64,000 nt of DNA from Candidatus Saccharibacteria bacterium RIFCSPHIGHO2_12_FULL_41_12. Lineage in GTDB: Bacteria; Patescibacteriota; Saccharimonadia; Saccharimonadales; 2-12-FULL-41-12. The DNA lies in assembly GCA_001790445.1 (NCBI GenBank), contig MGCQ01000001.1, positions 104,462 to 168,461 on the forward strand, in the 5' to 3' direction. Positions 541 through 25,072 of this stretch are shown here, piece after piece. The notes beneath the pieces are model-generated. The model did not search any database and had not been told where the DNA came from. It worked only from the letters and a program-made list of their open reading frames with translations. The translations under genes were made by a program, and so were the position numbers. Numbering within the stretch: position 1 is the stretch's first letter; every line of letters starts with the position of its first letter.

Positions 541-1044
541 ATGAACGAAATAGATAATGTTTCAATCAATTCAAATACAAACATAACCGGAGCCAATGCA
601 ATAGAATGGCTACAACCCAAAAAAGTTGAAGACCATTTACTAAAACAAATGATCAGAAGTTCATATGAAATCCTGGCAACAGCAAAGACAGTTTTTCCGT
701 TTACACTTTTCCCTCATACAATTACGCTGGATCGCACAAAAGTTACGATTATAAAAAGAAACTTTATTCTCTCATCTGAAACGGTGAGTTTTCGTATAGA
801 GGATATCCTGAATGTGAGCGTAAATGTCACCCCGTTTTTCGGATCAATCAAAATATTAACCAGGGTGTTCGGCACCGAAAAGCCATACCAAGTTGACCAT
901 TTTAAACGAGGCGAGGCGATACATCTAAAACACATCATCCAAGGCTATCTGATTGCAGCTAGACGGAATATCGACTGTTCAACCCTTGAGCATGGTGAGT
1001 TAATCAACCTGCTTGGACAGCTCGGGCATGACCCAACAGGCTAA
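541..1044 (+). CDS. Hypothetical protein, bacterial PH (bPH_2/YdbT-like) domain suspected
   Basis: The ORF track starts at GTG 520, but ATG 541 follows a GGAGG Shine-Dalgarno 7 nt upstream. The central region resembles the bPH topology (weak, from memory). Confidence 0.45.
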   Translation: MNEIDNVSINSNTNITGANAIEWLQPKKVEDHLLKQMIRSSYEILATAKTVFPFTLFPHTITLDRTKVTIIKRNFILSSETVSFRIEDILNVSVNVTPFFGSIKILTRVFGTEKPYQVDHFKRGEAIHLKHIIQGYLIAARRNIDCSTLEHGELINLLGQLGHDPTG

Positions 1045-1162
1045 AGACAACCACATATTACGATTTATTTGATGTAACGAAAGTAGCTCTTTCTAAATGC
1101 GCTTATGTGATTGGTGCTATAATTACTGCAATGAATAGCGTTAATCGCAATCTGGGTAAACA

Positions 1163-1927
1163 ATGTTAATTAGAGCAGTCAAGACAAGCCCCATCAGAGC
1201 GGGGGAACAATCAATATTTGATGTTCTTGATAAATATCTAGAAAAAGTTGAAGAGAGATCTATAGTTGTCATAACCTCTAAAATTGTCGCTTTACTAGAA
1301 AATAGAGTTGTTCAAATAGACGGAACCGACAAAAAAGCCCTAATCAGAGAAAGTGCAGATCTGTATTATCAACCAGAACCATCTGCCTCTAGTTTGGGCT
1401 ACAACTTTACTATCCTTCAGAATACATTAATCCCGTCGTCGGGTATAGACGCCTCGAACACAGACGGTGTTTATGTGCTTTGGCCTGAGGATTCAATCAA
1501 ATCCGCTAATGAAATCCGTCGATATTTAAAACAGAAGTTCCAACTAAAAGATGTCGGCGTAATTATATCCGATAGCACAATTGGCTTATCTCGGTGGGGG
1601 ACTATCGGCATCTGCATAGGGCACAGCGGGTTCAATCCAGTTAATGATTACGTCGGTATGCCAGATATTTTTGGCAGGAATTTAGAACTAAGTTCAGCTA
1701 ATATGGCCGGCAGTTTGTGCGCAGGAGCAGTAGCAGTCATGGGCGAGGGACCAGAGTGCACACCCGTAGCCATCATTGAAGATCTGCCACAGATAAAATT
1801 TCAGGATCATGACACCACGCCAGAGGAAGCTAAGCAATACTACTTATCCCCGCTTGAGGATTTAATATTCAAAGAATTTTTTACATCGGTAAAGTGGTTA
1901 GACGACGGGAATAAATCTGCAAAATAA
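1163..1927 (+). CDS. CofE-family protein (F420-0:gamma-glutamyl ligase-like)
   Basis: 254 aa. Motifs GIDASN, VGVIISDS and GR.LE…MGEG match the CofE family. Confidence 0.75.
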   Translation: MLIRAVKTSPIRAGEQSIFDVLDKYLEKVEERSIVVITSKIVALLENRVVQIDGTDKKALIRESADLYYQPEPSASSLGYNFTILQNTLIPSSGIDASNTDGVYVLWPEDSIKSANEIRRYLKQKFQLKDVGVIISDSTIGLSRWGTIGICIGHSGFNPVNDYVGMPDIFGRNLELSSANMAGSLCAGAVAVMGEGPECTPVAIIEDLPQIKFQDHDTTPEEAKQYYLSPLEDLIFKEFFTSVKWLDDGNKSAK

Positions 1928-1931
1928 ATAA

Positions 1932-1948
1932 CCCCCAGATTTGGGGGC
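1932..1948. terminator. Bidirectional hairpin terminator between convergent genes
   Basis: CCCCCA-GAT-TTGGGGG stem with A/T-rich runs on both sides. Lies between the 1927 stop (+) and the 1974 stop (-). Confidence 0.6.
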
Positions 1949-1973
1949 TATTATTGATACATCTGATGTAATA

Positions 1974-2231
1974 TTATCGAGGCTGTTGCGGCTTAGCTTC
2001 ACTAATAGTGATCGGACGACCACCTAGTTCTTTACCATTGAGCTCTGCAATAGCTTTGTCTCCAGCAGCATCATCTGCCATCTCAACGAAACCAAAACCT
2101 TTTGATCGACCTGTATCGCGATCTGTGATGATCCTTACGGATACAACTTCGCCAATTTGCGCAAAGAAATCTTTCATTTCGTCCTCTGTTAGTTTATATG
2201 GTAGGCTACCGACAAATAATCTTTTTCCCAT
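1974..2231 (-). CDS. RRM-type RNA-binding protein
   Basis: 85 aa. RNP-2 LFVGSL and RNP-1 KGFGFVEM motifs. Confidence 0.9.
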   Translation of the reverse strand: MGKRLFVGSLPYKLTEDEMKDFFAQIGEVVSVRIITDRDTGRSKGFGFVEMADDAAGDKAIAELNGKELGGRPITISEAKPQQPR

Positions 2232-2409
2232 TATTTTCCTTCTTTAGTTCTCTGGTACCTGCCTATAAAAACAGCCAACTGCTCCCGTCTGAAACTTATT
2301 ATTTTATTGTAAATTTACTTAAATATCACTAGCAGTCATCATTAAGTTAAAGATATTGTAACACAAACTTTTGGTTTACAATACCTCCGAGTTACTGTAA
2401 TGTAGAAGT

Positions 2410-3087
2410 GTGGAAAACAAGGACGTAAAGAAACTGTTCAATTCTAGAACCCACACCTTTCAGAAAGGACAGATGATCTATTTTCTTGGAGAAATACCAA
2501 AAAACAGTTTTTTCATTAATGAGGGGTTTATCAAAGTTTACGCCGTAGGAGAGGACGGGACAGAGCAAATTGTTAGATTCTCTGGCCCGGGGGAGTTCCT
2601 CGCACTGGGTTGGTTATTCGGATACTCACAAGTTATTAGATTTTATTATCAAGCCTTAACTGACTGTTCTTGCGAAGTTATATTCCAAGAAGAATTTAAA
2701 AAACACGAAGAAGATCCCAGCGTGCTCAGATGTATCTTAGATCAACTAAACGTTATCGCAAATCTCGGTCTAATTAGAAATATGGCCCTGCAACAGATCA
2801 AAGCTAGACAAAAAATCATCTATTTTCTGTACTTTTTGTCTCTCAGATATGGCAAGGAGCTCAACAATAACCTCTATGCCATCAAAATCCCGATGACCCA
2901 TCAAACAATCGCCGAAAACCTTGGTTTAACCCGAGAAACAGTTTCGACGGAAATGTCAAAACTTAAAAAAGAATCATTAATAGTCGTTAGACAAAAGAAA
3001 TACATCATTGATAAAAAGGTGGTCGTCAGTATCGTCGGACGAGATATAGCGAACTTTCACAGCTCAGCACAATTCAAAAAGAAGTAA
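2410..3087 (+). CDS. Crp/Fnr-family transcriptional regulator
   Basis: 225 aa, GTG start. N-terminal cNMP-binding-like barrel and a C-terminal HTH (TIAENLGLTRETVSTEMSKLKK). Confidence 0.8.
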   Translation: MENKDVKKLFNSRTHTFQKGQMIYFLGEIPKNSFFINEGFIKVYAVGEDGTEQIVRFSGPGEFLALGWLFGYSQVIRFYYQALTDCSCEVIFQEEFKKHEEDPSVLRCILDQLNVIANLGLIRNMALQQIKARQKIIYFLYFLSLRYGKELNNNLYAIKIPMTHQTIAENLGLTRETVSTEMSKLKKESLIVVRQKKYIIDKKVVVSIVGRDIANFHSSAQFKKK

Positions 3088-3099
3088 AAATCAGCCTGT

Positions 3100-3477
3100 T
3101 CAAATAACTTCTTCAATAATTTTTAACAAGTCCTTAGGGCTGGCCCATGACTTAAGAAAATACTTATCTATTCCTAGCTCATAAGCTTGTTTTACTTCAT
3201 TTTGCAGGTCGTAATTACTAAAAACCACCAGCTTTGCTTGGCGGTTTTTATAACGTTTTTTATATTCTTTCAAAAATTTTATGCCATCCATGTTTGGCAT
3301 TTTCAGATCAAGCAGGATCAAGTCATAGTTTGAATCTTCAACCAGACTAAGTGCTTCAATTCCGTCACTTGCTGGCGTTGTGTCGTAACCTGCGGTATCT
3401 AAAATCATGGTGTACGCTTCATTAAGAGATTTGTCGTCTTCTACAATTAATATATTTGCTAGTGTTGTGTCCGTCAT
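3100..3477 (-). CDS. Stand-alone response-regulator receiver domain protein
   Basis: 125 aa. ILIVEDD…DLILLDLKMPNMDG…K receiver motifs, with no output domain. Confidence 0.85.
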   Translation of the reverse strand: MTDTTLANILIVEDDKSLNEAYTMILDTAGYDTTPASDGIEALSLVEDSNYDLILLDLKMPNMDGIKFLKEYKKRYKNRQAKLVVFSNYDLQNEVKQAYELGIDKYFLKSWASPKDLLKIIEEVI

Positions 3478-3523
3478 AAAAACTTAATTATATAGTACCT
3501 AGAAATTTATTTTGTAAAATACT

Positions 3524-4519
3524 TCACAAGGGTAGCTCAATAATAAATATGCTTCCTCCACTGATAGATTTGTGCCTGATGCTTCCGTGGTTAAGCTCAA
3601 CTAATTTTCTAGCAATATACAGCCCTATACCAGAACCACCCTCAATAGATGACAGGGGATTGTCTATGCGTGAAAACTTTTTAAATAATTTAGAGGAATC
3701 TTTTTTCCGAATACCAACACCGTTATCTATAATACGTATGCTCACTGTTGTCGTGTGTTTTTCTACTTCTATTTTTACATGACCCTTAAAATTTGTGTAC
3801 TTAACTGCGTTTGAAAGCAAATTTTCAATGCTCATTCTGACGCATTGTTTGTCAGCGTTAATAATCAGATCATCTGGAGCACTGATCTCAACTTTTAGCT
3901 CTTTTGCTAAAATATTTTGTTCATATATTCGTACGAGTTCTTTGACTAAGTCGACCAAGTCAAAATCGCGGGGGTGAACAATAATTCGCTCTGCATCAAG
4001 CTTTGCCATATACAAAAAATCATTAATAATACGTAGCTGTCTTTCGTTATAAAAATACGCTCTGTCAATAAGGTTTCTTTGTTTGGTGCTTATACTGCCT
4101 GCCATACCCTCACGTATAATCCCAAGGTATTGCTTAACTCCTGTCGCAGGAGTTCTAAGTTGATGCGAGGCAAGTGCCAAAAGATCATCGCGGGCTTCTT
4201 GGAGTTTTAGCTGGTTTGACGTATGTATTTTATCTAGTTTGTTTCTTTTGATAACAACACTAATAACAAATAAAAATAACGCTATCAAAATGCCAAACGA
4301 CATAATAGCCCCTGTCATATCGGTGTTTTTAAAACTAGTATTAAATACACTTTCTAGTGGTGAAATCCAATATTCACCACTGTTCTTATGTGCATTGTGA
4401 TCAAGATTTATGAAAAAAGCCACCAAAAGCACCGCCCCAGCGATAGCATAACTACCGATATAATCTTTTTGAGCAGTTATGTCATGCCAAATGTACCGGG
4501 CAAATTGTTTCAACCTCAT
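3524..4519 (-). CDS. Membrane sensor histidine kinase
   Basis: 331 aa with 2 TM segments. H-box ASHQLRTPATG, N-box LLSNAVKYT, G-boxes DNGVGI and GGSGIGL. Lies upstream of the receiver gene on the same strand. Confidence 0.85.
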   Translation of the reverse strand: MRLKQFARYIWHDITAQKDYIGSYAIAGAVLLVAFFINLDHNAHKNSGEYWISPLESVFNTSFKNTDMTGAIMSFGILIALFLFVISVVIKRNKLDKIHTSNQLKLQEARDDLLALASHQLRTPATGVKQYLGIIREGMAGSISTKQRNLIDRAYFYNERQLRIINDFLYMAKLDAERIIVHPRDFDLVDLVKELVRIYEQNILAKELKVEISAPDDLIINADKQCVRMSIENLLSNAVKYTNFKGHVKIEVEKHTTTVSIRIIDNGVGIRKKDSSKLFKKFSRIDNPLSSIEGGSGIGLYIARKLVELNHGSIRHKSISGGSIFIIELPL

Positions 4520-4530
4520 ACACCCATAAT

Positions 4531-4704
4531 ACTATACTCGACTTACGCAAAATTGATGATTCGCCAGACTTGTCCAGAATTGATTCAAAAAAGGTCTTCT
4601 ACGGTGGAGAGGTACCTGTAGGTACATCGACAGCAGAAAGATCTTTTCTGGGTAAGTCTGGCGAGATTGAGAATGGGCAATTTTTGCGTAAGTCGAGTAT
4701 AGTT
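4531..4704. repeat. ~174-bp imperfect palindrome (long inverted repeat) in a divergent intergenic region
   Basis: Left arm ACTATACTCGACTTACGCAAAA (4531-4552) pairs perfectly with 4683-4704. Inner arms GCCAGACTT / AAGTCTGGC also pair, and the centre is GTACCT-GT-AGGTAC. Confidence 0.7.
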
Positions 4705-4738
4705 GCAAATAACCCACTTGGACATATAGAATATACTT

Positions 4739-5293
4739 ATGGTTAAAAAAACACCTCCGGTGTACAGTTTTGGTATAATCACTTCTTTAAAAGCCCATTT
4801 TATGCTTGTAGCACTGTATTTGATCCAACTGATACTATTTGATGCATCCAAGCTTGTTGCTCCAGATATAGTCAAACAACGTTGGGTCTGCGTCGCCGCT
4901 TTTGTAGTAGCCTGTGCCATCATCGCATATCTGGTAAAAATCAACCCAAAAAAAGTAAAATTCCATAAAATACTTATATTTGCATTGATTACGGTAGATA
5001 TCGCGTTTGCTGCATTTAACGTCTATATTAGCCGTGGCATGGCCAGCAGGGCAGTAATGCTCTTTGTCGTGCCATTGATGGTTGCAGCCCTTCTGATGAG
5101 CCTCAGTGCACTACTTTTGACAGCAACTGTGTGTGCAGCCGTCTATATCGCAACTGCTGTAAGTTATTTTGTGAATAATTTTAATGAAGGCTATAAAGTA
5201 GAGCTTTACGGAGAAGTTGGGTTTTATGCAGCCATGTTCTTCGTTGTAGCGTATTTACTGTGGGCAGTCGTCAAAAACCGCAAGATACTATAA
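4739..5293 (+). CDS. Integral membrane protein, unknown function
   Basis: 184 aa with ~5 hydrophobic helices. No recognisable motif. Confidence 0.6.
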   Translation: MVKKTPPVYSFGIITSLKAHFMLVALYLIQLILFDASKLVAPDIVKQRWVCVAAFVVACAIIAYLVKINPKKVKFHKILIFALITVDIAFAAFNVYISRGMASRAVMLFVVPLMVAALLMSLSALLLTATVCAAVYIATAVSYFVNNFNEGYKVELYGEVGFYAAMFFVVAYLLWAVVKNRKIL

Positions 5294-5327
5294 CCTACGA
5301 TAGCGACAATCTAGTACAATATAAGTA

Positions 5328-8300
5328 ATGGACAAACTAAATTCTAAACAACTTGAGGCTGTCAATGCTATCGAGGGACCAGTTTTGGTCATTGCGGGCC
5401 CTGGAACTGGAAAAACCCAGCTACTTAGCATGAGAGTAGCTAACATTCTCAAAAAAACTGACGCTGACCCTGAAAATATATTGTGTTTAACGTTTACTAA
5501 CAAATCTGCAACAAACATGCGTGATCGTTTGGTTAGTCTGATCGGTGTAGAAGCTAGAAAAGTTCAGGTCAGAACATTCCATAGTTTTGCTGCTGAGATC
5601 ATGAACCAGTATCCAGATTTTTTCTGGAATGGTGCTAAACTTTCTACTGCACCAGAGACGACTCAGCTTGAAATAATTCAACGAATTTTGTCTGATTTAC
5701 CGCACGACAATCCTCTCGCTTCAAGATTTGCTGGAAAATTTACTGCTATACCAAGAATCATGCAAGCTTTAAAATTGACTAAAGAGACGGGGCTTACACC
5801 AGACAAGTTACAGGCGATTGTGGAAGTTAATCTCGCCTATATTGACAAAATTGAAGATCAACTGATAAAAATACTTGCACCAACACTTAGCCTGAAAAGA
5901 ATTCCTGACTTACATACAAAAATCATGTCTTTGCCTGAGCAAGGAATTGGCTCGGGGCTGGCGCCGCTTTTATCATTAACCAGTGTGATTCAAGAAAGTC
6001 TAGAATTCGCCATAGATCAAGACTTAGGCACCGATAGAACAAAGGCCGTTAGTAAATGGAAAACAAAGTGGCTACAATCAGTTGATTCCAAAAAAGGGAT
6101 GCACAATGAAAGAAACCGTAACTTATGGTGGCTGGAGTTAGTCGATGTTTACCAAAAGTACAGAGAGCAGCTTCACTACAGAGGCTATTATGACTACTCC
6201 GATATGCTTGTAGAGGTACTGGCACAACTGGAGCAAAATCCAGAACTACTTTCTGAAGTTCAAGAGAAGTTTCGTTACGTGTTGATCGATGAGTTCCAAG
6301 ACAGTAATGCAGCGCAGCTTCGTCTGGCGCACTTAGTGGCAAATCACGAATCCGCAAATGGAAGACCCAATATTATGGCGGTAGGCGACGATGATCAATC
6401 AATCTTTGGCTTTAATGGGGCAGAACTGAACAATATGTTATTTTTTGATAGAAATTACAAAGATGTTAAAAAAATTGTTTTAGACGAAAACTACCGTTCT
6501 ACTCAAGCAATTCTTGACACAACGAGCAAGATAATTGATCAAGCTGGTGATCGGCTGGTCAAACGAGATAAATCTTTATCGAAAAAGTTAATTGCCAAAA
6601 AAGAAATTTCTGAGAATGGGGAAATACGACACATCAGTTACCCAACGCGTGAACATCAACTTAGCGAAGTCGCTAGAGAGATAAAAAAACGGTGGGCCAA
6701 AAACAATAATGAATCAATTGCGGTGCTGGCGCGCCATCACGGAAGCCTGCAAGCACTTTCGTCAATTCTTTTGAATATTGGGGTTCCAGTTAGCTACGAA
6801 CTTCGGAGCAATATACTTGAGCATGAGGCAGTCAAGCAGGCCATTATCATCGCCAAAATTGTTGGTTCTGTCCAAAATGGAGATAAAGAATTAGCAAACG
6901 AGTTACTTTGCAAAGCGCTACGACACCCAATGTGGGGGATTCCACCTGAAGATTTATGGAAACTTGCTCTGGCTAATTATAGTAAGCCCGACTGGATGAC
7001 GTACTTGCTCACAAGCAAGAACCCTCATTTAAAACAAATTGGAAAACATTTTGTTTGGTTGGCTGCGCAAGCAGACAAACAGCCACTTGCATCAACAATA
7101 GAATATATCTTAGGACTTCGATCCGGGGAACAGGGCTCCAGCCCGTTAAAAAAATATTTCTCAGCCAGACGATCTATTGATAACGATTATCTTCAGACAC
7201 TTTCTGCACTTAGAATTTTGAGAGAATTAGTAACAGAATTTTCCCGCACAACTACGCCCACTCTCGGCGACTTTTTAAAATATATCCAATTGAACGAAGA
7301 TAATAGACTAGGCGTGGTAGATGAATCTCCATTTGTAAGTGACGAAAAAGCAGTTGAACTATACACCGTTCATAAAGCTAAAGGGCTGGAATTTGATTGT
7401 GTATTTATCATAGATACTATCGAAGAAAACTGGCAACCAAAAACAGGTAGATATTCGTGCCCAAGCAATCTGCCGCTGCAACCTCCGCTTGAAAACGACG
7501 ATGACTATGCACGACTACTTTATGTGGCTGCAACCAGGGCAAAGCACACCTTGATTGCGACAAGTTACGATTTTGATCACGCGGGCAAGGAGTTATTGCC
7601 AACCCCACTAATAAGAGAAGCTATCGGACTTAACACAAAAAAAGATAAGACATTGGCAACCGACCCAATTATTGTGCTTGAAGAATCCCTTCGCTGGCCA
7701 CATTTGAATAGAGGGAAAGAAAAAGAGCTGATCAAGGCGAAACTTGAATCGTTTTCTATAAATGTTACAAATCTGTTGAATTTCTTAGACGTTACCCAAG
7801 GTGGACCAGAATACTTTTTTGAAAGAAACGTATTGCGCTTACCAGAGGCAAAAACCGCGACTTTAGCTTATGGATCCGCAGTGCATGCAAGCTTGGATTT
7901 TGGTCAAAAGCTTGTTAATAGCGATAGTTTCAGCTTGGTCAAACTTTTAGATACATTTGCACAAGAGCTTCGTGGTGAAAATTTGCCAAGAGACGAGCAC
8001 ACAAAGTATTTAGCTCGCGGGCAGAAAATGTTCAAAAAACTTTTTGGGGCAAATGGCTTTGTTCTTCCAAAAGGTAGCAAAAGCGAACAACGCATAAAAG
8101 ATGTAAAGTTGTCCTCTGCGATAATCGATGGCAAGCTTGATAGGGTGGACAAGATAGATGATCGGCTGACTATAGTTGACTATAAAACAGGGTCACCCCT
8201 GTCAGGCTTTGAAACGTCTGACCAATCAAAAGCCATCAAGGCTTGGAAACAAAAAACTCAATTAATTTTTTATGCCCTTATTATCAAAAATGACCTCCGA

Positions 8301-8534
8301 TTTGGTAAACCCAGTCATATAGAAGGGGAAATGGTTTATGTTGAAGCAAGCCAATCTAAAGATCTTGTCCGTACTTACATCCCGACTTTAGAAGATGTAG
8401 AGAGGTTAAATCAGCTAGTCGAAGCAGTTTGGCGAAAAATTAATGATTATGACCTGCCAGATGTGTCAAAATACACACCAGATATATCAGGTATAGCTCA
8501 ATTTGAAGAAGATCTCATAAATAATATTTTGTAA
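5328..8534 (+). CDS. UvrD/PcrA-type SF1 helicase fused to a C-terminal PD-(D/E)XK (RecB/AddA-like) nuclease domain
   Basis: 1068 aa. Walker A GPGTGKT, DEFQDSN, ENYRST, VHKAKGLEFD and YVAATRA helicase motifs. The C-terminus carries DRVD…IVDYKTG…QLIFY nuclease motifs. Confidence 0.85.
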   Translation: MDKLNSKQLEAVNAIEGPVLVIAGPGTGKTQLLSMRVANILKKTDADPENILCLTFTNKSATNMRDRLVSLIGVEARKVQVRTFHSFAAEIMNQYPDFFWNGAKLSTAPETTQLEIIQRILSDLPHDNPLASRFAGKFTAIPRIMQALKLTKETGLTPDKLQAIVEVNLAYIDKIEDQLIKILAPTLSLKRIPDLHTKIMSLPEQGIGSGLAPLLSLTSVIQESLEFAIDQDLGTDRTKAVSKWKTKWLQSVDSKKGMHNERNRNLWWLELVDVYQKYREQLHYRGYYDYSDMLVEVLAQLEQNPELLSEVQEKFRYVLIDEFQDSNAAQLRLAHLVANHESANGRPNIMAVGDDDQSIFGFNGAELNNMLFFDRNYKDVKKIVLDENYRSTQAILDTTSKIIDQAGDRLVKRDKSLSKKLIAKKEISENGEIRHISYPTREHQLSEVAREIKKRWAKNNNESIAVLARHHGSLQALSSILLNIGVPVSYELRSNILEHEAVKQAIIIAKIVGSVQNGDKELANELLCKALRHPMWGIPPEDLWKLALANYSKPDWMTYLLTSKNPHLKQIGKHFVWLAAQADKQPLASTIEYILGLRSGEQGSSPLKKYFSARRSIDNDYLQTLSALRILRELVTEFSRTTTPTLGDFLKYIQLNEDNRLGVVDESPFVSDEKAVELYTVHKAKGLEFDCVFIIDTIEENWQPKTGRYSCPSNLPLQPPLENDDDYARLLYVAATRAKHTLIATSYDFDHAGKELLPTPLIREAIGLNTKKDKTLATDPIIVLEESLRWPHLNRGKEKELIKAKLESFSINVTNLLNFLDVTQGGPEYFFERNVLRLPEAKTATLAYGSAVHASLDFGQKLVNSDSFSLVKLLDTFAQELRGENLPRDEHTKYLARGQKMFKKLFGANGFVLPKGSKSEQRIKDVKLSSAIIDGKLDRVDKIDDRLTIVDYKTGSPLSGFETSDQSKAIKAWKQKTQLIFYALIIKNDLRFGKPSHIEGEMVYVEASQSKDLVRTYIPTLEDVERLNQLVEAVWRKINDYDLPDVSKYTPDISGIAQFEEDLINNIL

Positions 8535-8554
8535 AGTATTTTACAGTACTTTTC

Positions 8555-8704
8555 ATGAGTAAATGCAAAGATGTGTTGATGATTATTGAATCTACATTGA
8601 TTTGCCTAGGATATCTGGCTCTTGGAGCACTCATTGCTGACGTATTGATAGTTAATGACAACCTTCCAGTATGTTCAGATATAATTTTGCCTGAACCTGT
8701 GTGA
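8555..8704 (+). CDS. Possible 49-aa small hydrophobic protein
   Basis: ATG ORF found by hand (MSKCKDVLMIIESTLICLGYLALGALIADVLIV…), below the track cutoff. No clear SD. Confidence 0.2.
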   Translation: MSKCKDVLMIIESTLICLGYLALGALIADVLIVNDNLPVCSDIILPEPV

Positions 8705-8737
8705 AGAATAGGGATTGAAAGCTTTAATTAAAGAGTA

Positions 8738-9172
8738 TTAATTTCTTTTGCTGCGATGACGACGTTTTAGTCCGGAAAGTTGGAGTCTGACTGTTTGACG
8801 GTCAATCATTTCTTGAGCGTGTTCAAGTGAAACTTGATCTTTGGCTAATTTCTTCAAGCTTTTGGCTCGCTCAAGTGCTTTTGTGATCTCATCTTCTCTA
8901 AGGTTCTCTAGATCTTCTACCTCGTCAGCCAGAATTATCAGTTCGTTGTCAAGAACCTTGATAGTTCCTCCAAATACCGCCGTTGCGTGTCGATCTGCAT
9001 CTTTGACAGACTTTTCTTCTCGGACATGGATAATTCCATAACTTAGCACACCAATCAGTGGAGCATGGCCACCATAAACCGCAATCTCACCAGCCTTGGT
9101 TGGGATCATCACTTCGTAGACATCTTTATCTATTCTCATACCACTTAGAGTGATTAACTTTAATCTAATCAT
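8738..9172 (-). CDS. atpC: F1 ATP synthase epsilon subunit
   Basis: 144 aa at the last position of the atp operon. Beta-sandwich plus helical tail pattern. Confidence 0.85.
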   Translation of the reverse strand: MIRLKLITLSGMRIDKDVYEVMIPTKAGEIAVYGGHAPLIGVLSYGIIHVREEKSVKDADRHATAVFGGTIKVLDNELIILADEVEDLENLREDEITKALERAKSLKKLAKDQVSLEHAQEMIDRQTVRLQLSGLKRRHRSKRN

Positions 9173-9173
9173 G

Positions 9174-10559
<1,386 letters not shown>

Positions 10560-10588
10560 TTATTCTCCTTATCTAACTTAAATGGTTG

Positions 10589-10694
10589 TTTATATGAATA
10601 CAATACAAGGCAGGGCTGAGAAGCGGACCAAACTGTATTTAATGATACAGTGCGGGAGCATCGCAAGGCATAACGCAGTAGTGTTTCATATAAA
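10589..10694 (-). other. Structured ~105-nt element inside the 145-nt atpG-atpD spacer
   Basis: Outer 10-bp stem TTTATATGAA (10589-98) / TTCATATAAA (10685-94) and inner 7-bp stem ACTGTAT (10632-38) / ATACAGT (10645-51). Confidence 0.4.
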
Positions 10695-10698
10695 TCAA

Positions 10699-11586
10699 TC
10701 ATGATTTGACTGCCTCTGCACCACCAACTATCTCAGCTATCTCTTGGGTTATTGCTGCCTGACGAGCAGTATTTAATGCCAAGGTCAAATCTTCAATAAT
10801 ATCTCCGGCATTATCGCTAGCGTTTTTCATAGCCATCATTCTCATACTTTGTTCACTAGCACCTGCCTCGAGCAGTGCTTGCCAGAGCTGTACTTCTATC
10901 AGACGAATGCCCACACTTTCAATAATTTCTTCAACAGATGGCTCAAAAATAGCCACCTCAAGTGGCGACAACTCGCGGGTTTCAGTCTTTTTGTCATCTG
11001 GATCGATAAGGTAGGGAATCAAAGCTACAGAGACAACTTCTTGGCGGATACTTGAGATAAATTGAGTATAGACGACCTTGACTCTATCTATTTTTTTTTG
11101 TAAATAGTGTGAAGTTATCACCTCAATCATTGGAGCGATCGCTTGTGGGCTCGGGTGATCTCCTAGCATTGGGTAGGCACTGTGGTGATTCAAGCCTTTA
11201 TGTTTTGCTACAAATTTACCAGCATATCGTCCAATTGAAATAACATCTGTATTGATTTTGTCCGCTTTGTTTTGTTTAATGATTTCTATAAATTTCTTTA
11301 ATACGTTTGAGTTATATGCACCGGCTAGTCCTTGGTCACTACAGACAACAACTAGTAGCTCATTTTTAACAGGTCTATTGGCAAATAAATCATCAAGTTT
11401 GGCATCTGAGACACTCGATAGTTGACCGATTAGCAGCCGTGCTTGTTCCTTAAAAGGTCGTGAATTAATCGCATATTCCTGGGCGTGGCGCATCTTGCTA
11501 GCGGACACAAGTTCCATCGCCTTCGTAATCTGGCGCGTGTTTTTGACGCTAGTAATCCGTCTTTTAAGAGTAGTTACGCCTGCCAT
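10699..11586 (-). CDS. atpG: F1 ATP synthase gamma subunit
   Basis: 295 aa. N-terminal RI.SVKNT.QITKAM and C-terminal ITQEI.EIV.GA motifs. Confidence 0.95.
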   Translation of the reverse strand: MAGVTTLKRRITSVKNTRQITKAMELVSASKMRHAQEYAINSRPFKEQARLLIGQLSSVSDAKLDDLFANRPVKNELLVVVCSDQGLAGAYNSNVLKKFIEIIKQNKADKINTDVISIGRYAGKFVAKHKGLNHHSAYPMLGDHPSPQAIAPMIEVITSHYLQKKIDRVKVVYTQFISSIRQEVVSVALIPYLIDPDDKKTETRELSPLEVAIFEPSVEEIIESVGIRLIEVQLWQALLEAGASEQSMRMMAMKNASDNAGDIIEDLTLALNTARQAAITQEIAEIVGGAEAVKS

Positions 11587-11592
11587 ATTTGT

Positions 11593-13119
11593 TTATTTGT
11601 ACTCCTCACCAATCGTCTTCGCGACATCTATGATTGTCTTTTTCATGGCGTCTGTTGGCTTATCGCCCTTGTTAAGCTCATTCATAAGTTTGGTGTGTTT
11701 AGAACCCAAACGGGATAATAGTGCTTGTTTTGCTTGTTGGATTTTATTCACTGCGACTTTATCAAAAGCACCCTCTATAGCCGCTATCAACATCGCTGTT
11801 TGTTCCCATACTGAATATGGCAAGTACTGAGGTTGCTTGAGTAATTCTGTTAGTCGTTGTCCGCGATCAATGCGGTGTTTGGTCTCAGCATCAAGGTCAG
11901 TAGAAAACTGAGCAAATGCTGCCAACTCTCTAAATTGAGCTAGGTTGAGGCGGAGACTACCAGCTACACTTTTTATAGCTTTTGTCTGAGCTGATCCACC
12001 AACACGTGACACAGATAAACCTACAGAAATAGCCGGACGAATACCTTGATAAAACAGGTTAGTTTCAAGAAATATTTGACCATCCGTAATAGAGATAACA
12101 TTGGTTGGAATGTACGCACTGACATCTCCCGCCTGTGTCTCGATGATTGGCAGGGCAGTCAAACTACCGCCCCCAAGTTCATCAGATAATTTAGCAGATC
12201 GCTCTAAAAGGCGTGAATGCAAATAGAAAACATCTCCGGGGAAGGCTTCTCGCCCTGGTGGACGTCGGAGTAGCAAGCTCATTTGCCGGTACGCATTCGC
12301 ATGCTTGGAAAGATCATCATGAATAATCAAGGCATGCTGGCCATTATCACGGAAATATTCTCCCATAGCTGTACCTGAATATGGAGCAAGGTATTGCATA
12401 GAAGCAGCTTCAGAAGCGGACGTAGCGACCACGATAGTCTGTTCCATGACACCTTCACTTGCCAATCTCTCAACAAGCTTGGCTACCTTACTTGTCTTTT
12501 GTCCTATTGCAACATAAATATTGATAACTCCGGTTTTTTGACGATATTGGTTGACCATAGTATCGACTGCGACTGCGGTTTTACCTGTCTGTCTATCACC
12601 AATGAGAAGCTCTCTCTGTCCACGACCAATAGGTACCATAGCGTCAATCGCCATAATGCCAGTCATAAGAGGTTCATGGACACCCTTTCGAGCTAGGACT
12701 CCTGGGGCATGGTTTTCGATCAAACCGGTTTTTTTGGCTTTTATGGGGCCTTTTCCATCAAGTGGTTTACCTAAGGGGTCAACAACCCGTCCAACCAGCT
12801 CTGGACCAACCGGGACACTAAGAGGCTTGCCCGTCAAACGGACACGAGCACCTGCTGACACCGCCAGTTCATCTCCTAGTAACACTGCGCCAATTTCGTT
12901 CTCAGCCAAGTTTAGAGCAAATGCTGTGACTTTATTGCCAGCCGTACCTTCAATTTCCAGTAGCTCATAAGAACCACAAGAACGTAGTCCATAGATCCAC
13001 GCGACCCCATCACCAACACGAGTAACTACTCCTGTTTCCTGAACGTCTGGTAAGTCTTTAATCTCTTCGATGGCTTTTTTGATGTCATTTGACAGTTCTT
13101 TTACTGATATTTGGCTCAT
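11593..13119 (-). CDS. atpA: F1 ATP synthase alpha subunit
   Basis: 508 aa. GDRQTGKT Walker A and typical alpha-subunit conservation. Confidence 0.97.
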
Positions 13120-13139
13120 TGTTGCTTGTCTGTACCTTT

Positions 13140-13517
13140 CTACTTATCTATACTCGATTTTATATAATTTAGCTGACTTTTCAGACTTCTGTCTATCAGG
13201 TAATTTGCAGATTCAATTCTAATTCCTCCAAGTAGGGCAGGGTTAACTTTTGTATGAATAATTATTTCTTTTGCGCCCTGGAAATTTTTCTTAAAATAAG
13301 TTCTAATGCTGTCCAACTGTTTCTGCTGAAGTTCATGGGCAGAAGCTACGCTTATTTCAAATACACCTCTGGTTTCTCTGGTTGTCATAACGTCACGCAT
13401 TAATGAGTCAAGTTGAGATGTTTGCTTGGTGTCTATCAAATAACTTGCGACTTGCTTTGCTAAACCTTTGCTGGCAAACTCTTGATCAATGTAGCCAGCG
13501 ATTTTATGACTCTGCAT
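13140..13517 (-). CDS. atpH: F1 ATP synthase delta (OSCP) subunit, unusually short
   Basis: 125 aa. Called from its operon position and the C-terminal LLGGIRIE…IDRSLKSQL motif. Confidence 0.75.
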
Positions 13518-20476: not shown

Positions 20477-21022
20477 ATGTTTGAAGTATTAAAAACAAAA
20501 TCCACAGACTCTAGATCCAGAGCTCGAGTTCCTTTCCGAACTAATTTAATTGCTGGCAGAATACTAGATCAATACATCGAGAACAGAGATAGGGTTGTAG
20601 GGATGAAAGAAGCCCACAAGGGGTTAGATCCAGATGCATATGGGATTGGCACTATATTGACTTTTGCTGAAAATAAGGTGGTGACCATACCAGCCTCAGC
20701 TTATAGGAAATTCGGCCACATGCCCCCTGCTCAAATAACAGTAGCACAAGCTATAGTGCCTTTTGTTGGAGTAGTTGCTCCAATCAAAAATTCTGGACAG
20801 GCTATAGTTGGATTTCAAGAAACACCGCATGGGCTACTTAGCCCTACGTTAATGCCAGAACCAGATGAGTCTGGACATGTCTTTAAGGGCGTAGACGAAG
20901 AATTTGGTATTACTGGTGAGTTATTTTTTGATGACATAAGGATAGCTAGAGAAATTCCTATGGACGGCTTCAGACTGAGACACTACCTGAATCCAAGTGA
21001 TCTTGAGAACATGTCATTTTAA
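20477..21022 (+). CDS. Hypothetical protein
   Basis: 181-aa ORF with no recognisable motif. Confidence 0.5.
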   Translation: MFEVLKTKSTDSRSRARVPFRTNLIAGRILDQYIENRDRVVGMKEAHKGLDPDAYGIGTILTFAENKVVTIPASAYRKFGHMPPAQITVAQAIVPFVGVVAPIKNSGQAIVGFQETPHGLLSPTLMPEPDESGHVFKGVDEEFGITGELFFDDIRIAREIPMDGFRLRHYLNPSDLENMSF

Positions 21023-21105
21023 CAAATATATTTACTAAATGCCTTCTCTCATGTAGAATTATTCTAGTTGACTTGTGAAAAAGTATCACAAGCATTAGTC
21101 GCTGT

Positions 21106-21180
21106 TCCCGGGTAGCTCAATGGTGGAGCAAGAAGCTGTTAACTTCGAGGTTGTCGGTTCGAATCCGACCCCGGGAGCCA
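21106..21180 (+). tRNA. tRNA-Asn (GTT), CCA encoded
   Basis: 75 nt. Acceptor TCCCGGG/CCCGGGA, D stem GCTC/GAGC, anticodon loop CTGTTAA, T arm GTCGG-TTCGAAT-CCGAC, then G-CCA. Confidence 0.95.
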
Positions 21181-21181
21181 T

Positions 21182-21226
21182 CCTCCGTCGCTATGTTTTG
21201 ACATAGCTATGGGGGATTATTTTTTG
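21182..21226 (+). terminator. Hairpin plus T-run terminator directly after tRNA-Asn
   Basis: Stem GCTATGT/ACATAGC with an outer CCTCC/GGGGG extension, followed by TTATTTTTT. Confidence 0.65.
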
Positions 21227-21268
21227 AGTCGGACTTGAACAAGACAACCCATACAAGCCAGCTTGGAT

Positions 21269-21357
21269 GGTAGTTGTCGGTTCGTTCATAAGAAGCTCTC
21301 GCAGAAGCTTGCTCCGAGAAAGCTTTGCAGTGTGCCAAAGGCAGCCCCACCCCGAGA
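21269..21357 (+). repeat. tRNA-Asn-derived T-arm fragment carrying a ~62-nt insertion (repeat B), a direct repeat of 23890-23975
   Basis: GTTGTCGGTTCG + insert (TTCATAAGAAGCTCTCGCAGAAGCTTGC…GGCAGCC) + CCACCCCGAGA. Roughly 90% identical by eye to the 23868-23980 copy. Confidence 0.8.
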
Positions 21358-21379
21358 ATCAATTCAGATTCAAGATACT

Positions 21380-21417
21380 GTTAGAACCGATTCCCCTCGT
21401 TGGGAGTCGGTTCTAAC
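21380..21417 (+). other. 16-bp perfect-stem hairpin in the leader of the KaiC-like gene
   Basis: GTTAGAACCGATTCCC-CTCGTT-GGGAGTCGGTTCTAAC with one G-U pair. No following T-run. Confidence 0.6.
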
Positions 21418-21541
21418 CATTTCTGGGAACTGTAAAAGGCCCCATTCATTTTTTCTAGTGAACCTACGCATTTGATTGCATTTATCCTCTGAGTTAGCTA
21501 TCATTTAGATACAAACAACTAATGTTTTTTCATCTGGGCGT

Positions 21542-23335
21542 ATGATAGATAATAGCGATGTTCAACCTAACTTAGACAATACGAATGATCAAGAGATATT
21601 TGAATGCGAAAAAAATCAATTGTTAAATGATAGAAATACTTACCCCCCTACTTCTGCTTCAGTAGAGAAGACACTCAACACGGATATACGCCCCACTGGC
21701 ATCCCAGAACTTGATCAAGTTCTTTATGGAGGAATGCCTTCAAACGCAACTGTTATTTTAGCTGGCGGACCTGGCACAGGAAAAACAACACTCGCCTTGC
21801 AATGGCTTGTCGCAGGGTACAAACAGTACAATGAACCCGGTCTATACATCACAGCTACCGAGCCCATCAACAAAGCTTTAAGCAATTTAAAAAAACATGA
21901 GTTTGGCAAAGAATTTGTAATGAACAAAGATACTATAGTTTTTGAAGATCTTCGGACAATTATTAGTAATCTGAATATGAAAGAAGAGAATCTTGTCGAC
22001 GAAAATCTTGATCGGATTATTGACGCAATCTCTGATTTAATTCAGACAAGCGGTGCCAAGCGAGTCGTTATTGATTCTATTACCGCTCTCACATATGGCC
22101 TCCAGGAGAAAAGCCAAGTTCGCAAATTCATTCATCATATGGACGCCCTTATAACGCTTTCTGGCGTAAATATTATTTTAATCTCAGAAGCGTCAGGTGC
22201 TGACCGCTCCGTTTTTGGGGTTGAGGAATTTATAGCTGATGGCATCATCAGATTGACACGAGCCAGGGAGAGCAACGAACTCGTTCATTATCTAGAAATT
22301 ATAAAAATGCGCACGATATCATATAATTCACGACCAATCTCTTATAAAATTACGCCACATGGAATTAAGTTATTTCCTGACACAGAACAAGATTTGACTT
22401 ATCAATCATCATCTAAGCGCATTACTACAGGTATCCCCGGTTTAGACGAAATGACCGGCGGGGGATTTATAGAAGGATCAGCTATACTTGTCACCGGCAC
22501 ATCAGGAGCCGGCAAATCAATCTTGTCCCTACAATTTTTGCAAAATAGATTGCTGGAAAAACAAAATGCGGTTCTCGTTTCCTTTGAAGAATCTAAAGAG
22601 CAAATATACCGAAATGCAAAATCTTTCGGGTGGGATCTCGAATCTTATGAGAAAAATGGTCAGCTCACTGTACTTACAGGATTCCCCGAAAGCAAATATC
22701 CCCAGGAACACATACTAACTATCCAAGAATTGACCGAAAAAACAAATGCCAAGTTTTTAATATTTGATTCTATATCGGCGGTAGAAAGTACATTTTCTTC
22801 TGAAAAAGCACGTGATATGATCACGCATCTCAATGCTTATTTGAAATCTAAAGCCATAACCACCATATATACGAATGCGACACAGACACTTCTTGGCTCA
22901 ACACAAGTAACTGACTCGCGGCTCTCTACGATTACTGACCAAATCATTATGTTACGATACGTTGAAGTGCAGTCGAAATTACGTCATGCGCTCCTCATAC
23001 TTAAAATGCGTGGAAGCAGCCACGATAAAAGTGTGAAAGAGATAGTGTTTGACACAAGTGGTTTAAGAATTACAAATGATTTTTCTGGAATGGAGGGAGT
23101 TCTGACCGGAAGCGCGAAACAAGTTTCCGCATCAACTGAAGAAAAAGTGCATTCTTTATACATGGAGATGCTGGGACCAATGGGAGAAAAACTGTTCAAT
23201 CAAGAGAAAAAAGGCGGTCTATCAGCTACCAAAATACACCTTATGATCCAGGATCTAGCAGATCAGGGAATTCTTGCGAAAGAAAAAAAAGAAGAGTTCT
23301 TTTCTAAAATTAATTCTATTTTTGGCATCAAATAA
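21542..23335 (+). CDS. KaiC-like double RecA-fold ATPase
   Basis: 597 aa. Two tandem KaiC/RadA-like domains with Walker A GGPGTGKT and GTSGAGKS, each preceded by GIP.LD. Has ~55-aa N-terminal and ~80-aa C-terminal extensions. Confidence 0.85.
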   Translation: MIDNSDVQPNLDNTNDQEIFECEKNQLLNDRNTYPPTSASVEKTLNTDIRPTGIPELDQVLYGGMPSNATVILAGGPGTGKTTLALQWLVAGYKQYNEPGLYITATEPINKALSNLKKHEFGKEFVMNKDTIVFEDLRTIISNLNMKEENLVDENLDRIIDAISDLIQTSGAKRVVIDSITALTYGLQEKSQVRKFIHHMDALITLSGVNIILISEASGADRSVFGVEEFIADGIIRLTRARESNELVHYLEIIKMRTISYNSRPISYKITPHGIKLFPDTEQDLTYQSSSKRITTGIPGLDEMTGGGFIEGSAILVTGTSGAGKSILSLQFLQNRLLEKQNAVLVSFEESKEQIYRNAKSFGWDLESYEKNGQLTVLTGFPESKYPQEHILTIQELTEKTNAKFLIFDSISAVESTFSSEKARDMITHLNAYLKSKAITTIYTNATQTLLGSTQVTDSRLSTITDQIIMLRYVEVQSKLRHALLILKMRGSSHDKSVKEIVFDTSGLRITNDFSGMEGVLTGSAKQVSASTEEKVHSLYMEMLGPMGEKLFNQEKKGGLSATKIHLMIQDLADQGILAKEKKEEFFSKINSIFGIK

Positions 23336-23356
23336 TGCTTATGTTAATATAAAAAC

Positions 23357-23854
23357 ATGGACAACACGCCCCTAGACGTTTCTGCTATTATCCTAAATAT
23401 TATTGCTACCATGATCTCTTTCAGTGTGATTGTGCTGATGATCATCCTTATTATGAGAACAAAACTTCTGAGGAGGGGTCTAACGTTTATCAGTGTAGGT
23501 TTTGGAGTTGCAGTATTCTTGCATTTACTAGCTGATTCTTTAGAATTGGCTGGCTATCTGGGCAAGGGCACCCTGATGGATATTATGCCTATATTTATTG
23601 CTGTCGGATCTATCTTAATATTTATTGGGTGTTATAACCTGTTAAAAATTACAAGACCTATCAATAAACTGACAGAAGAAGTACAAAGTATCTCCACTGG
23701 TAAACTGGATATTGAATTGTCTGGAATAGATAGAAAAGACGAGCTCGGAGAGCTAGCGAAAGCTTTTAACCGAATATTAGTAAGTCTCAAACTCGCCATG
23801 AGAGAACAACCAGTCGCAGGATCAGAAATAAGCGAAAAGACCAAAGAAATTTGA
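23357..23854 (+). CDS. Membrane protein with a HAMP domain and no output domain
   Basis: 165 aa. Three TM helices, then HAMP-like ITRPINKLTEEVQSISTGKLDIEL…DELGELAKAFNRILVSL. Confidence 0.75.
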   Translation: MDNTPLDVSAIILNIIATMISFSVIVLMIILIMRTKLLRRGLTFISVGFGVAVFLHLLADSLELAGYLGKGTLMDIMPIFIAVGSILIFIGCYNLLKITRPINKLTEEVQSISTGKLDIELSGIDRKDELGELAKAFNRILVSLKLAMREQPVAGSEISEKTKEI

Positions 23855-23867
23855 AAAGCTAAAAACA

Positions 23868-23980
23868 AGCAAGAAGCTGTTAACTTCGGGGTTGTCGGTT
23901 CGTTCACAAGAAGCTCTCGCAGAAGCTTGCTTCGAGAAAGCTTTGTAGCATACCAAAGGCAGCCCCGACCCCGGGAGCCA
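23868..23980 (+). repeat. Partial tRNA-Asn copy (anticodon arm to CCA) with a 62-nt insertion in the T loop (repeat C)
   Basis: AGCAAGAAGCTGTTAACTTCGGGGTTGTCGGTTCG + 62 nt (23903-23964) + CCGACCCCGGGAGCCA. It lacks the acceptor 5' strand and the D arm. Confidence 0.85.
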
Positions 23981-23999
23981 AATACAACAAGAAATTAAA

Positions 24000-24030
24000 A
24001 GACTGACTTTCTGTAACTGGTCTTTTTTTT
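24000..24030 (+). terminator. Probable terminator (weak stem, T8 run)
   Basis: AGAC…GTCT stem followed by TTTTTTTT at 24023-24030. Confidence 0.45.
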
Positions 24031-24095: not shown

Positions 24096-24872
24096 ATGAC
24101 AAAAGAGATTCTTGTAGCTAAATTTGGTACGAAGTGTGTTGTTAATGGTGGAGCTATCGCTCAAAACCGTGTAAATCGTCACGCCAAAAGATTCTCACGA
24201 CTTTTAGACAGTCATAGACTTGGAATAGTTAGTTCAGGAGCCGTAGGATCAGGTAGCCGCAGAATTGCAAGCCGCAGACCAGACTTAACAGATAAATTAG
24301 ATAAGCGTACGCTTGCAGCAATAGGCAGCCCAAGTGCTTTCCATACCTGGAGAAGGGCGTTTGGACGACTCGAATTCGAAGGAATGCCAATTGTTGCAGC
24401 AGAGCTTAAAGCAACTCATGACAACATGGACCACCCTGACGAAGGGAAAAGTTTGGTAGAAGTTTTTCTCAACTGTGTCAATCACGGAATTATTCCAGTG
24501 TTTAACATAAATGACCCTCTGGACAGATATAAAGACGAGTTAGGCGGTATTGAAGCAGGAAGAGACAATGACCACGCAGCCGAACACCTAGCACGAAAAG
24601 TTGGGGCAAATACATTAATGTTGTTAACTGCAAAAGTAGGCGGAGTTATAATTGACGGGCAAATCCAGCCAACAATTTCGGTATCCGACATAGGTGATTT
24701 AGATACTCATCTTACTGGTACAGACGAGGACGGCACAGGATCAATGGCCAGCAAGTTGCAAGCAGGGGCGAACGCACTTCAAGGTGGTGTCGAAAATGTA
24801 TTTATTGGTAGCTCAAGTTCTGATCCTCGAGAAATCCTTGCCAGGCACATAGGCACCCAACTCATACCATGA
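24096..24872 (+). CDS. Glutamate 5-kinase-like amino-acid kinase (kinase domain only, no PUA)
   Basis: 258 aa. KFGT, VSSGAVGSG, LAAIGS, IPVFNINDP, DNDHAAEHLA and GTGSMASKLQAG parallel ProB. Confidence 0.7.
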   Translation: MTKEILVAKFGTKCVVNGGAIAQNRVNRHAKRFSRLLDSHRLGIVSSGAVGSGSRRIASRRPDLTDKLDKRTLAAIGSPSAFHTWRRAFGRLEFEGMPIVAAELKATHDNMDHPDEGKSLVEVFLNCVNHGIIPVFNINDPLDRYKDELGGIEAGRDNDHAAEHLARKVGANTLMLLTAKVGGVIIDGQIQPTISVSDIGDLDTHLTGTDEDGTGSMASKLQAGANALQGGVENVFIGSSSSDPREILARHIGTQLIP

Positions 24873-25072
24873 GTTAGTAAATACCGAAATAGTTCTAACT
24901 TCCGTCACTATTGAGGACCATGAAAGATGAATCCTAATAGACTTATTTTTTGATATACTGATTATGTTGATAAGTCCAGATATTCAAATAGCTCTTTTGG
25001 TTTCTTAAGAATAACTATCTCTGGCAAACCCGCACGAAGAGACTCAATATTAGCTAAATAAGGAGTCATCAG

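Follow-up and report, generated by a model that had tools for sequence, protein, structure and literature searches.

We describe here a tRNA-Asn gene and the variable DNA downstream of it in contig MGCQ01000001.1 of Candidatus Saccharibacteria bacterium RIFCSPHIGHO2_12_FULL_41_12, within a 64-kb stretch that was analyzed as a whole and that we refer to as the window. Saccharibacteria and other Patescibacteria have tiny genomes in which transfer RNA (tRNA) genes are, as a rule, present in single copy. The intact tRNA-Asn(GTT) of the window, which has an encoded CCA end, forms the left anchor of the variable region and is followed by a terminator-like hairpin and by an islet made up of a tRNA-like repeat (B), genes for a KaiC-family ATPase and a HAMP-domain protein, and a second tRNA-like repeat (C) (Table 1). 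This order of features had been set out in an initial annotation of the locus, and ARAGORN, Rfam, Pfam and alignment of the repeats all agree with it. To the right of C lie an amino-acid kinase gene and a third, degenerate tRNA-3'-like repeat (AGTTCTAACTTCCGTCACTATTGAGGACCA). Among the three tRNAs of the window, tRNA-Asn alone has partial copies.

C is a copy of the 3' portion of tRNA-Asn interrupted by 62 nucleotides (nt). Its left part (23868-23902) corresponds to tRNA positions 22-57 and matches 21127-21161 over 35 nt with one mismatch (A-to-G), whilst its right end (23965-23980) is identical to the last 16 nt of the gene. Between them, following T-loop position 57, the 62 nt take the place of the AAT of that loop and hold a hairpin, P3 (23911-23943), and a P4 region. 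Alignment confirms the initial description of C, which amounts to tRNA positions 22-76 altered in this way. B carries the same insertion, as had been recognized, and is 90% identical to C over 81 gapless nt (21273-21353 against 23891-23971) that include the whole 62-nt segment. A 24-nt piece of the insert is found at only two sites in the 64 kb, those in B and C, with none expected by chance.

The two repeats differ in their outer parts. The 3' end of B (CCCACCCCGAGAATCA) is degenerate, being 75% like the tRNA end. C, which begins 14 nt after the stop codon of the HAMP gene, is missing the 5' third of the element and runs into a flank that begins AATACAAC at 23981. B itself proved larger than the T arm and degenerate acceptor strand first ascribed to it: the full element (~21224-21361) has further helices, namely a short hairpin (21234-21243) and a long-range helix, GACAAC/GTTGTC (21243-21248 with 21273-21278), that encloses another hairpin (21249-21270), followed by GGTTCG, the P3/P4 module and the degenerate 3' end. 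B and C are one full and one 5'-truncated copy of a conserved folded element derived from tRNA-Asn. A terminator-like hairpin stands behind each tRNA-3'-like end, B's included, as is expected for former gene ends. A-rich/T-rich hairpins equivalent to the one that follows tRNA-Asn in the window lie directly 3' of this gene in related loci; a simple terminator scan of the window listed neither this hairpin nor the one behind C.

Chance similarity or misassembly of the repeats has a negligible likelihood. Contigs of several independent assemblies do break in or right after tRNA-Asn (at position 1 of L002, at the ends of L014 and L031 and at the start of L017; L numbers designate loci from other assemblies), as an artefact might leave them, and these breaks may reflect repeats or population and strain heterogeneity. 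However, B and C are identical in sequence in two further assemblies of the same strain (L001 and L002), making three independent assemblies in all, so their arrangement is not an assembly artefact, and homologous elements occur in many other genomes.

The interrupted tRNA-like sequence of C invites comparison with an intron-containing or split gene, in which C or B would be part of a tRNA-Asn whose T-loop insert is removed from the RNA. Self-splicing group I introns are frequent in the tRNA-Asn genes of Patescibacteria (PMC13011429), and hence the tRNA species and the phylum are the same; C moreover has a perfect anticodon arm and 3' end. Against this, the known introns are much longer and interrupt the anticodon loop at position 35/36 (PMC13011429), whereas the module here is 62 nt long, lies in the T loop and is carried by non-functional tRNA copies. 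C lacks the acceptor 5' strand and D arm, B lacks the anticodon loop, and an intact tRNA-Asn stands alongside. No Rfam model, intron or tRNA, matches B, C or seven related elements at E<=1, and none of these sequences gives a tRNA or transfer-messenger RNA (tmRNA) call, with ARAGORN calling 21106-21180 only. The intron or split-gene explanation is thus close to refuted and very improbable. The position of smpB just upstream had also suggested a tmRNA, which ARAGORN and Rfam rule out. The element is not a tRNA, a tmRNA or an intron, nor is the islet an integron.

Neither islet gene matches a recombinase family in Pfam, and phmmer searches of the six-frame translation of the window with a XerD-type tyrosine recombinase seed and a large serine recombinase seed returned nothing, in line with the earlier remark that the islet has no recombinase. 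A relative of the KaiC-family gene in L003 is 69% identical and is found in a different setting, with no tRNA and no HAMP partner, and thus gave no empty site. A role of the cargo in defense was considered and dropped, as PADLOC gave a weak P-loop match only.

A folded element derived from tRNA-Asn

We compared the locus with 33 tRNA-Asn loci of Saccharibacteria and other Patescibacteria, obtained by a scan, with each species represented by a single genome, for the anticodon-to-T-loop stretch of this tRNA. At least 10 of these 33 loci (L018, L019, L023, L025, L026, L027, L029, L032, L036 and L042) have an element of the same family directly 3' of the tRNA-Asn terminator, and a family-level gapped pattern recovered it at three metagenome loci and in no viral contig. 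The search for sequences like B and C beyond this genome was productive among relatives and metagenomes and empty among viruses. The elements are ~110-190 nt long and, in those related loci, terminate in the exact tRNA 3' end, (T)CCGACCCCGGGAGCCA. The genomes that carry them are far apart (SmpB 55-65% identical) and the intergenic DNA around the element is unalignable. Distribution is nonetheless patchy: the element is absent from L020, L028 and L035 despite their closeness to carriers, and in L025, L026, L029, L032, L042 and L048 it is present without any cargo. The literature that we searched contained no description of it, and this conserved, covarying tRNA-Asn-derived element, which punctuates the arrays described below and is uncatalogued in Rfam, is new here.

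Common to the family are GGTTCGGTC, the irregular P3 hairpin, which has a tetraloop and the conserved shoulders CGCAG...CGAGCA, a variable P4 hairpin and the 3' core; the subfamily in the window additionally has the GACAAC/GTTGTC long-range helix around another hairpin, a helix that folding recovers. Alignment of the whole element with MAFFT was structurally inconsistent and only the P3 segment aligned cleanly. Across eight sequences, 95.9% of the cells of P3 are paired, against ~42% with the partners slid, a contrast that is inflated by the structure having been drawn from the sequences on which it was tested. Seven of the 10 pairs have changed on both sides, and the covariation score of 0.743 (0.268 in shuffles) was reached by none of 500 shuffles; RNAalifold agrees with the hairpin. 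This variety of pair types is hard to explain other than by structure. Folding energies are less telling, with z-scores of -0.45 to -1.0 for four of six members and about -3.8 to -4.0 for the other two. As thermodynamic stability is unconvincing, the case for structure rests on covariation. The exceptions to pairing in P3 are G.U and A.C in equal number, and thus favor neither strand, nor RNA over DNA, as the form in which the element acts.

The apex of P3 retains the sequence of the tRNA-Asn anticodon stem (AGAAG/CTTCG and covarying versions of it) with the loop cut to four bases, and its base resembles the D stem. From this likeness, the 62-nt insertion appears to be another tRNA-Asn fragment, degenerate and placed within the T loop of the first one.

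These properties bear on an explanation in which nothing is mobile. B and C would be paralogous copies of a functional non-coding RNA gene, encoding a tRNA-shaped RNA derived from tRNA-Asn with an expanded T loop and a CCA end, and the KaiC and HAMP genes would be resident genes left between the copies by a local duplication. The compensatory changes conserved across such distant genomes are what a functional RNA would show, as are the orientation of the element (that of the tRNA), the terminator-like hairpin that usually follows it and its occurrence without cargo; the normal GC content of the islet would also be accounted for. Other observations are difficult to reconcile with a gene of this kind. 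With the 5' third of the element missing, C cannot represent an entire gene, the space that separates the element from the tRNA terminator is too small for a promoter, the patchy distribution and the unremarkable folding energies of most members are not those expected, the pairing exceptions indicate no strand, and the DNA between the flanks has been replaced wholesale in two relatives (L020 and L005, below). We therefore regard this explanation as unlikely.

The tRNA-Asn locus in related genomes

The left side of the locus is recurrent among the 33 loci, with a glycoside hydrolase (GH)-like protein in 21, SmpB in 20 and a glycosyltransferase (GT2) in 14, whereas the open reading frames (ORFs) downstream of tRNA-Asn are almost all singletons. 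The closest relative in the set, L020, shares both flanks with the window: the GH-like protein (83%), SmpB and Sua5 (60%) on the left, and a 52-amino-acid ORF (85%) and OmdA (82%) on the right. The interval from the tRNA to the right flank, taken up in the window by B, the KaiC and HAMP genes, C and the amino-acid kinase gene, consists in L020 of 1.6 kb of unrelated DNA; the kinase is absent at the corresponding position. Nucleotide similarity resumes only ~35 nt beyond the third repeat, and hence the window's island does not end at C, as had been reported, but extends to ~24950, a boundary that is new here.

A more distant relative, L005, has the same kinase in an array. Its tRNA-Asn is followed by 5.4 kb of nine small genes (577-6087) and then by the kinase gene. 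Between the small genes stand three tRNA-Asn-3'-like repeats and a repeat of a second kind in four copies (GTTCTAAC..GTCACAGAGAGCCAAGCATA), each of which sits directly after a stop codon. The kinase thus stands next to the tRNA-Asn island in both the window and L005, but is in yet another place in L004, and in more distant relatives (L006, L007, L010, L011 and L013) it belongs to a conserved S2-Tsf-RRF-M50 protease-Rce1-kinase-ProRS block. Synteny traced through the downstream kinase is mostly uninformative owing to this ribosomal-factor block, L005 being the one informative case.

An empty and an occupied site can be compared directly in L029 and L047, which have right-hand sequence in common. 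L047 contains 5525 bp extra (6102-11626, against position 6744 of L029), placed exactly after the tRNA's GGGAGCCA, right behind the CCA of tRNA-Asn. The insert carries thioredoxin-type, CcdA, MsrA, MsrB and glutaredoxin-like genes and two helix-turn-helix (HTH) genes, has no recombinase, and terminates in a tRNA-like GGTTCGAATCTGGTTGCGGGAGCCA. To its right lies an IS3-type transposase gene (12573-13349). In L018 (192-2001) the order is tRNA-Asn, element, 1.3 kb of cargo, a plain T-loop-to-CCA copy and a second element; the cargo comprises a metallophosphatase-like ORF and two small minus-strand ORFs (by eye a putative toxin-antitoxin pair), and the two elements, which enclose the cargo as B and C do in the window, differ little outside the last hairpin. 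In L043 a block made up of tRNA 3' end, terminator and element is displaced by 2 kb. As L043 and L047 show, tRNA 3' end, terminator and element move as one unit upon insertion at the tRNA.

Comparison of these loci supports the view that the tRNA-Asn gene behaves as an integration hotspot. The initial reading of the islet as the scar of integration into a tRNA gene gains from this behavior, which is seen across the 33 loci, in L020, in the L047/L029 pair and in the serine recombinases described below, but it does not extend to B, which is no mere scar: the insertion that it shares with C is a conserved, covarying hairpin module of an element that many species have beside tRNA-Asn, whether cargo is there or not. 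The empty site that alignment of relatives had been expected to yield was found in part, as a differently filled site in L020 and an empty/occupied pair in L029 and L047, with no exact empty counterpart of the window's islet.

Other features were seen around these genes. Another clade (L015, L021, L022, L024, L030, L033, L037, L039 and L043-L045) has tandem ORF-less mini-units in the first 300 nt after tRNA-Asn, which begin GACCAAGCA..AGACCnnGTTCCTAGACC and hold fragments of anticodon loop plus T arm (CTGTTAnnnGGTTCGAACCC). In the window, Sua5 and tRNA-Asn are separated by a 181-amino-acid ORF (20477-21022) for which Pfam, NCBIfam and PADLOC gave no matching family and which has no counterpart in L020, where the tRNA directly follows Sua5. 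Two overlapping sigma-70-like promoter matches lie just 5' of tRNA-Asn (21003-21059), and no comparable match is found between the tRNA terminator and B.

A serine recombinase family at tRNA-Asn

Screening of 104 ORFs downstream of tRNA-Asn yielded as site-specific recombinases a large serine recombinase in L040, whose domains are Resolvase, Recombinase and Zn-ribbon, together with a split copy in L038, and no others. Both lie directly against the tRNA and next to a replication-initiator-like gene. Tyrosine recombinases were found neither in the window nor in any fetched locus. The serine recombinase family has 860 homologues at E<=1e-20, many of them on long Patescibacteria contigs, and in five of six loci (L038, L040, L053, L055 and L057) the 3' end of the recombinase gene overlaps tRNA-Asn(GTT) on the opposite strand. 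L053 and L055 are marine, and the elements occur in both Saccharibacteria and marine Patescibacteria. This phylum-wide tie of one serine recombinase family to tRNA-Asn is new here.

The elements are 8-10 kb long and have a module of Xis-like HTH, Rep-like, SpoVG-like and 375-amino-acid genes together with restriction-modification cargo. In L052 (9960-10030) an 88%-identical recombinase gene adjoins no full tRNA but only a tRNA-Asn-like 3' portion (~positions 24-76), whose resemblance to the true tRNA weakens around the anticodon loop and whose span matches that of repeat C. L052 may represent a form that is not integrated, or one that was inserted into a displaced tRNA copy.

Table 1. Features of the tRNA-Asn island in the window, and recombinase genes at tRNA-Asn in related loci (coordinates of the locus named)
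Feature	Position	Strand	Evidence or comment
Intact tRNA-Asn(GTT), encoded CCA; left anchor of variable region	21106-21180	+	ARAGORN; Rfam RF00005, 64.8 bits
Terminator-like hairpin and T run, 3' of tRNA-Asn	21181-21227	+	Read from sequence; equivalents in related loci
Repeat B, full-length tRNA-Asn-derived structured element	21224-21361	+	
P3 hairpin in B, core of the 62-nt insertion	21293-21325	+	Covariation in 8 sequences; RNAalifold
Inverted repeat with 31-nt arms, 3' of B	21365-21432	+	Layout like hairpins behind other tRNA-3'-like ends
Cargo gene 1, two-domain KaiC-family ATPase	21542-23335	+	Pfam PF06745, 2.9e-100; NCBIfam NF006799, 400.5 bits (cut-off 408)
Cargo gene 2, small transmembrane HAMP-domain protein	23357-23854	+	Pfam PF00672, 4.8e-12
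Repeat C, 5'-truncated copy of the element	23868-23980	+	
Short terminator-like hairpin and T8 run, 3' of C	24000-24030	+	Read from sequence
Amino-acid kinase gene, probably a third, older island unit	24096-24872	+	Pfam PF00696
Third, degenerate tRNA-3'-like repeat, 3' of kinase gene	24891-24920	+	Aligned with L005 repeats and with L018 and L047 far-end copies
Large serine recombinase gene, L040	2197-3780		
Large serine recombinase gene, L038	3197-4798		
Large serine recombinase gene, L053	10001-11584		
Large serine recombinase gene, L055	634-2217		
Large serine recombinase gene, L057	10001-11563		

Proposed assembly of the island and its relation to known systems

We favor the reading that the window holds a recombinase-less array of cassettes at a tRNA-Asn hotspot, punctuated by the folded element and forming a three-unit island from 21181 to ~24950, and put its probability at roughly 55%. 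The island would have been seeded at the genome's single tRNA-Asn gene and would comprise three head-to-tail units that each close with a tRNA-Asn 3' end copy: the terminator with B; the hairpin, the KaiC-like ATPase, the HAMP protein and C; and the amino-acid kinase with the short degenerate copy. Incoming DNA would recombine at the 3' portion of the tRNA or at an earlier copy of it, pushing older units downstream. Units that have no recombinase would be remnants, or else cassettes that lack autonomy and are mobilized by an enzyme whose gene lies elsewhere, for which the best candidate is the large serine recombinase family that abuts tRNA-Asn in other Patescibacteria. The element, which normally lies just 3' of the tRNA, may provide a second docking site, its 3' end duplicating the recombination core of the tRNA. 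The KaiC and HAMP genes would then most likely have entered by recombination between two elements or at the 3' end of B, leaving B (with the host 5' part) and C (with the host 3' end and host flank) as direct repeats.

The structure of the repeats fits such an event: a B with a complete 5' part and a C with an exact 3' core and flank are the pattern that would be expected from a single crossover. It is compatible with a site-specific enzyme that acts in trans and also with homologous recombination of the ordinary kind. In the latter case a plasmid, an excised island or another circular DNA that the cell had taken up and that bore a copy of the element would have integrated in the manner of Campbell by one crossover, with no site-specific recombinase. 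The 81 nt of 90% identity between B and C, the divergence of their outer parts and the failure to find a recombinase in the window are all as this would predict. On the other hand, the tRNA and the far-end copy at the L047/L029 junction share only ~8 nt (GGGAGCCA), a length typical of site-specific events and insufficient for RecA-type recombination, and the viral and metagenome scans contained no free circular form. The 8-nt junctions elsewhere favor a site-specific enzyme, and we consider Campbell-type integration rather improbable for the islet.

Several observations weigh against the array of mobile cassettes that we favor. The absence of a recombinase from the window is drawn mainly from the two phmmer seeds, the Pfam screen of the other large ORFs having covered the best 25 of 61 families. 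Exact-pattern scans for the window's insert gave no other copy in viral contigs (two scans) or metagenome contigs (one scan), and the GC content of the islet is that of its surroundings. For this islet the comparison gave no empty-site allele, no excision junction and no circular form; L001 and L002 are identical to the window. The 3' end of B is degenerate and that of C, supposedly the older, is intact, which accretion with the newest unit next to the tRNA does not predict. Lastly, the serine recombinase elements have no far-end tRNA copy within 10 kb, and their tRNA-proximal arm (ATTTGAA...) differs from the unit starts in the window, making the link between this enzyme family and the islet circumstantial. 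The layout of the islet, the hotspot seen in related genomes, the conserved and covarying element and the association of the recombinase with tRNA-Asn at other loci are observations. As neither an empty site, nor a circular junction, nor a recombinase was found for the islet, its arrival by such recombination, and the enzyme involved, are matters that we infer. Two matches to the junction GGGAGCCAGACCAAGCA in the viral scans lay inside coding regions of unrelated contigs without a tRNA and were judged to be due to chance.

The island is a known kind of phenomenon, combining tRNA-seeded tandem accretion, integrase-less remnants and non-autonomous elements flanked by attachment (att) sites. It has an intact tRNA as its boundary, a tRNA 3' repeat on the far side, and flanks that are differently filled in relatives, as do tRNA-targeting islands; there is no recombinase inside it, and it therefore lacks the defining feature of an autonomous integrative element. 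A close parallel may be drawn with the tycheposons and tRNA-seeded genomic islands of Prochlorococcus, which grow by tandem accretion (bioRxiv 10.1101/2020.12.28.424599). The two have in common an intact tRNA at one edge, partial tRNA copies between and after cargo, newcomers that push older blocks further in, degenerate remnants without an integrase and variable content between conserved flanks. Unlike tycheposons, which have tyrosine recombinases and replication genes, the island in the window has no recombinase, the recombinases at this tRNA in relatives are of the large serine type only, and, of the three partial tRNA copies in it, B and C have a conserved folded module that is undescribed in those islands.

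The islet further resembles the cis-mobilizable elements (CIMEs) known from the biology of Streptococcus integrative and conjugative elements, which are att-flanked islands without recombination or transfer genes: direct att-like repeats bound the cargo, there is no integrase, and dependence on an autonomous element using the same site is presumed. In contrast to CIMEs, the cargo is flanked not by simple att cores but by structured elements of 80-110 nt, and mobilization is putative; this genome has no known cognate autonomous element. The serine recombinase elements at tRNA-Asn in relatives have their enzyme at the tRNA-Asn end along with the Xis-like HTH and replication-initiator-like genes and restriction-modification cargo, all of which the window lacks. 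Elements of the large serine recombinase type usually leave only a 2-bp repeat, unlike the long tRNA-derived repeats found here.

As in integrons, short cargo units next to a fixed primary site end in an element that is like a recombination site and is better conserved in structure than in sequence. There is however no IntI-type tyrosine recombinase and no R''/L''-L'/R' architecture of attC, the repeats are derived from a tRNA, and the units are not uniformly oriented in relatives, the cargo of L018 being on the opposite strand. By eye, the GTTCTAAC/GTTAGAAC motifs come near to RYYYAAC/GTTRRRY of attC but do not fit it. A tentative and, in our estimation, doubtful extension of the cassette-array reading is that the element shared by B and C is a functional module of a cassette system based on a tRNA: as a folded RNA or single-stranded DNA site it would mark where recombinase-less cassettes end and would permit their capture and shuffling at tRNA-Asn by a recombinase supplied in trans, the serine recombinase that Patescibacteria have at tRNA-Asn being an example. 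Alternatively, it may be a new tRNA-mimic regulatory RNA with a wide distribution in Saccharibacteria.

How Saccharibacteria and other Patescibacteria gain and lose genes is poorly understood. The window and its relatives point to the tRNA-Asn gene as a phylum-wide entry point for foreign DNA, with cargo across the loci that includes restriction-modification, oxidative-stress repair and signalling genes and toxin-antitoxin pairs. If the element acts as an RNA, it would be a new tRNA mimic. Should it act instead as a site in DNA, it may account for the movement of cassettes that have no recombinase, and a cassette system of this kind, if real, would amount to an integron-like gene-capture device in ultra-small bacteria. 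The element is also a possible natural landing pad for genetic tools in these hard-to-manipulate organisms.

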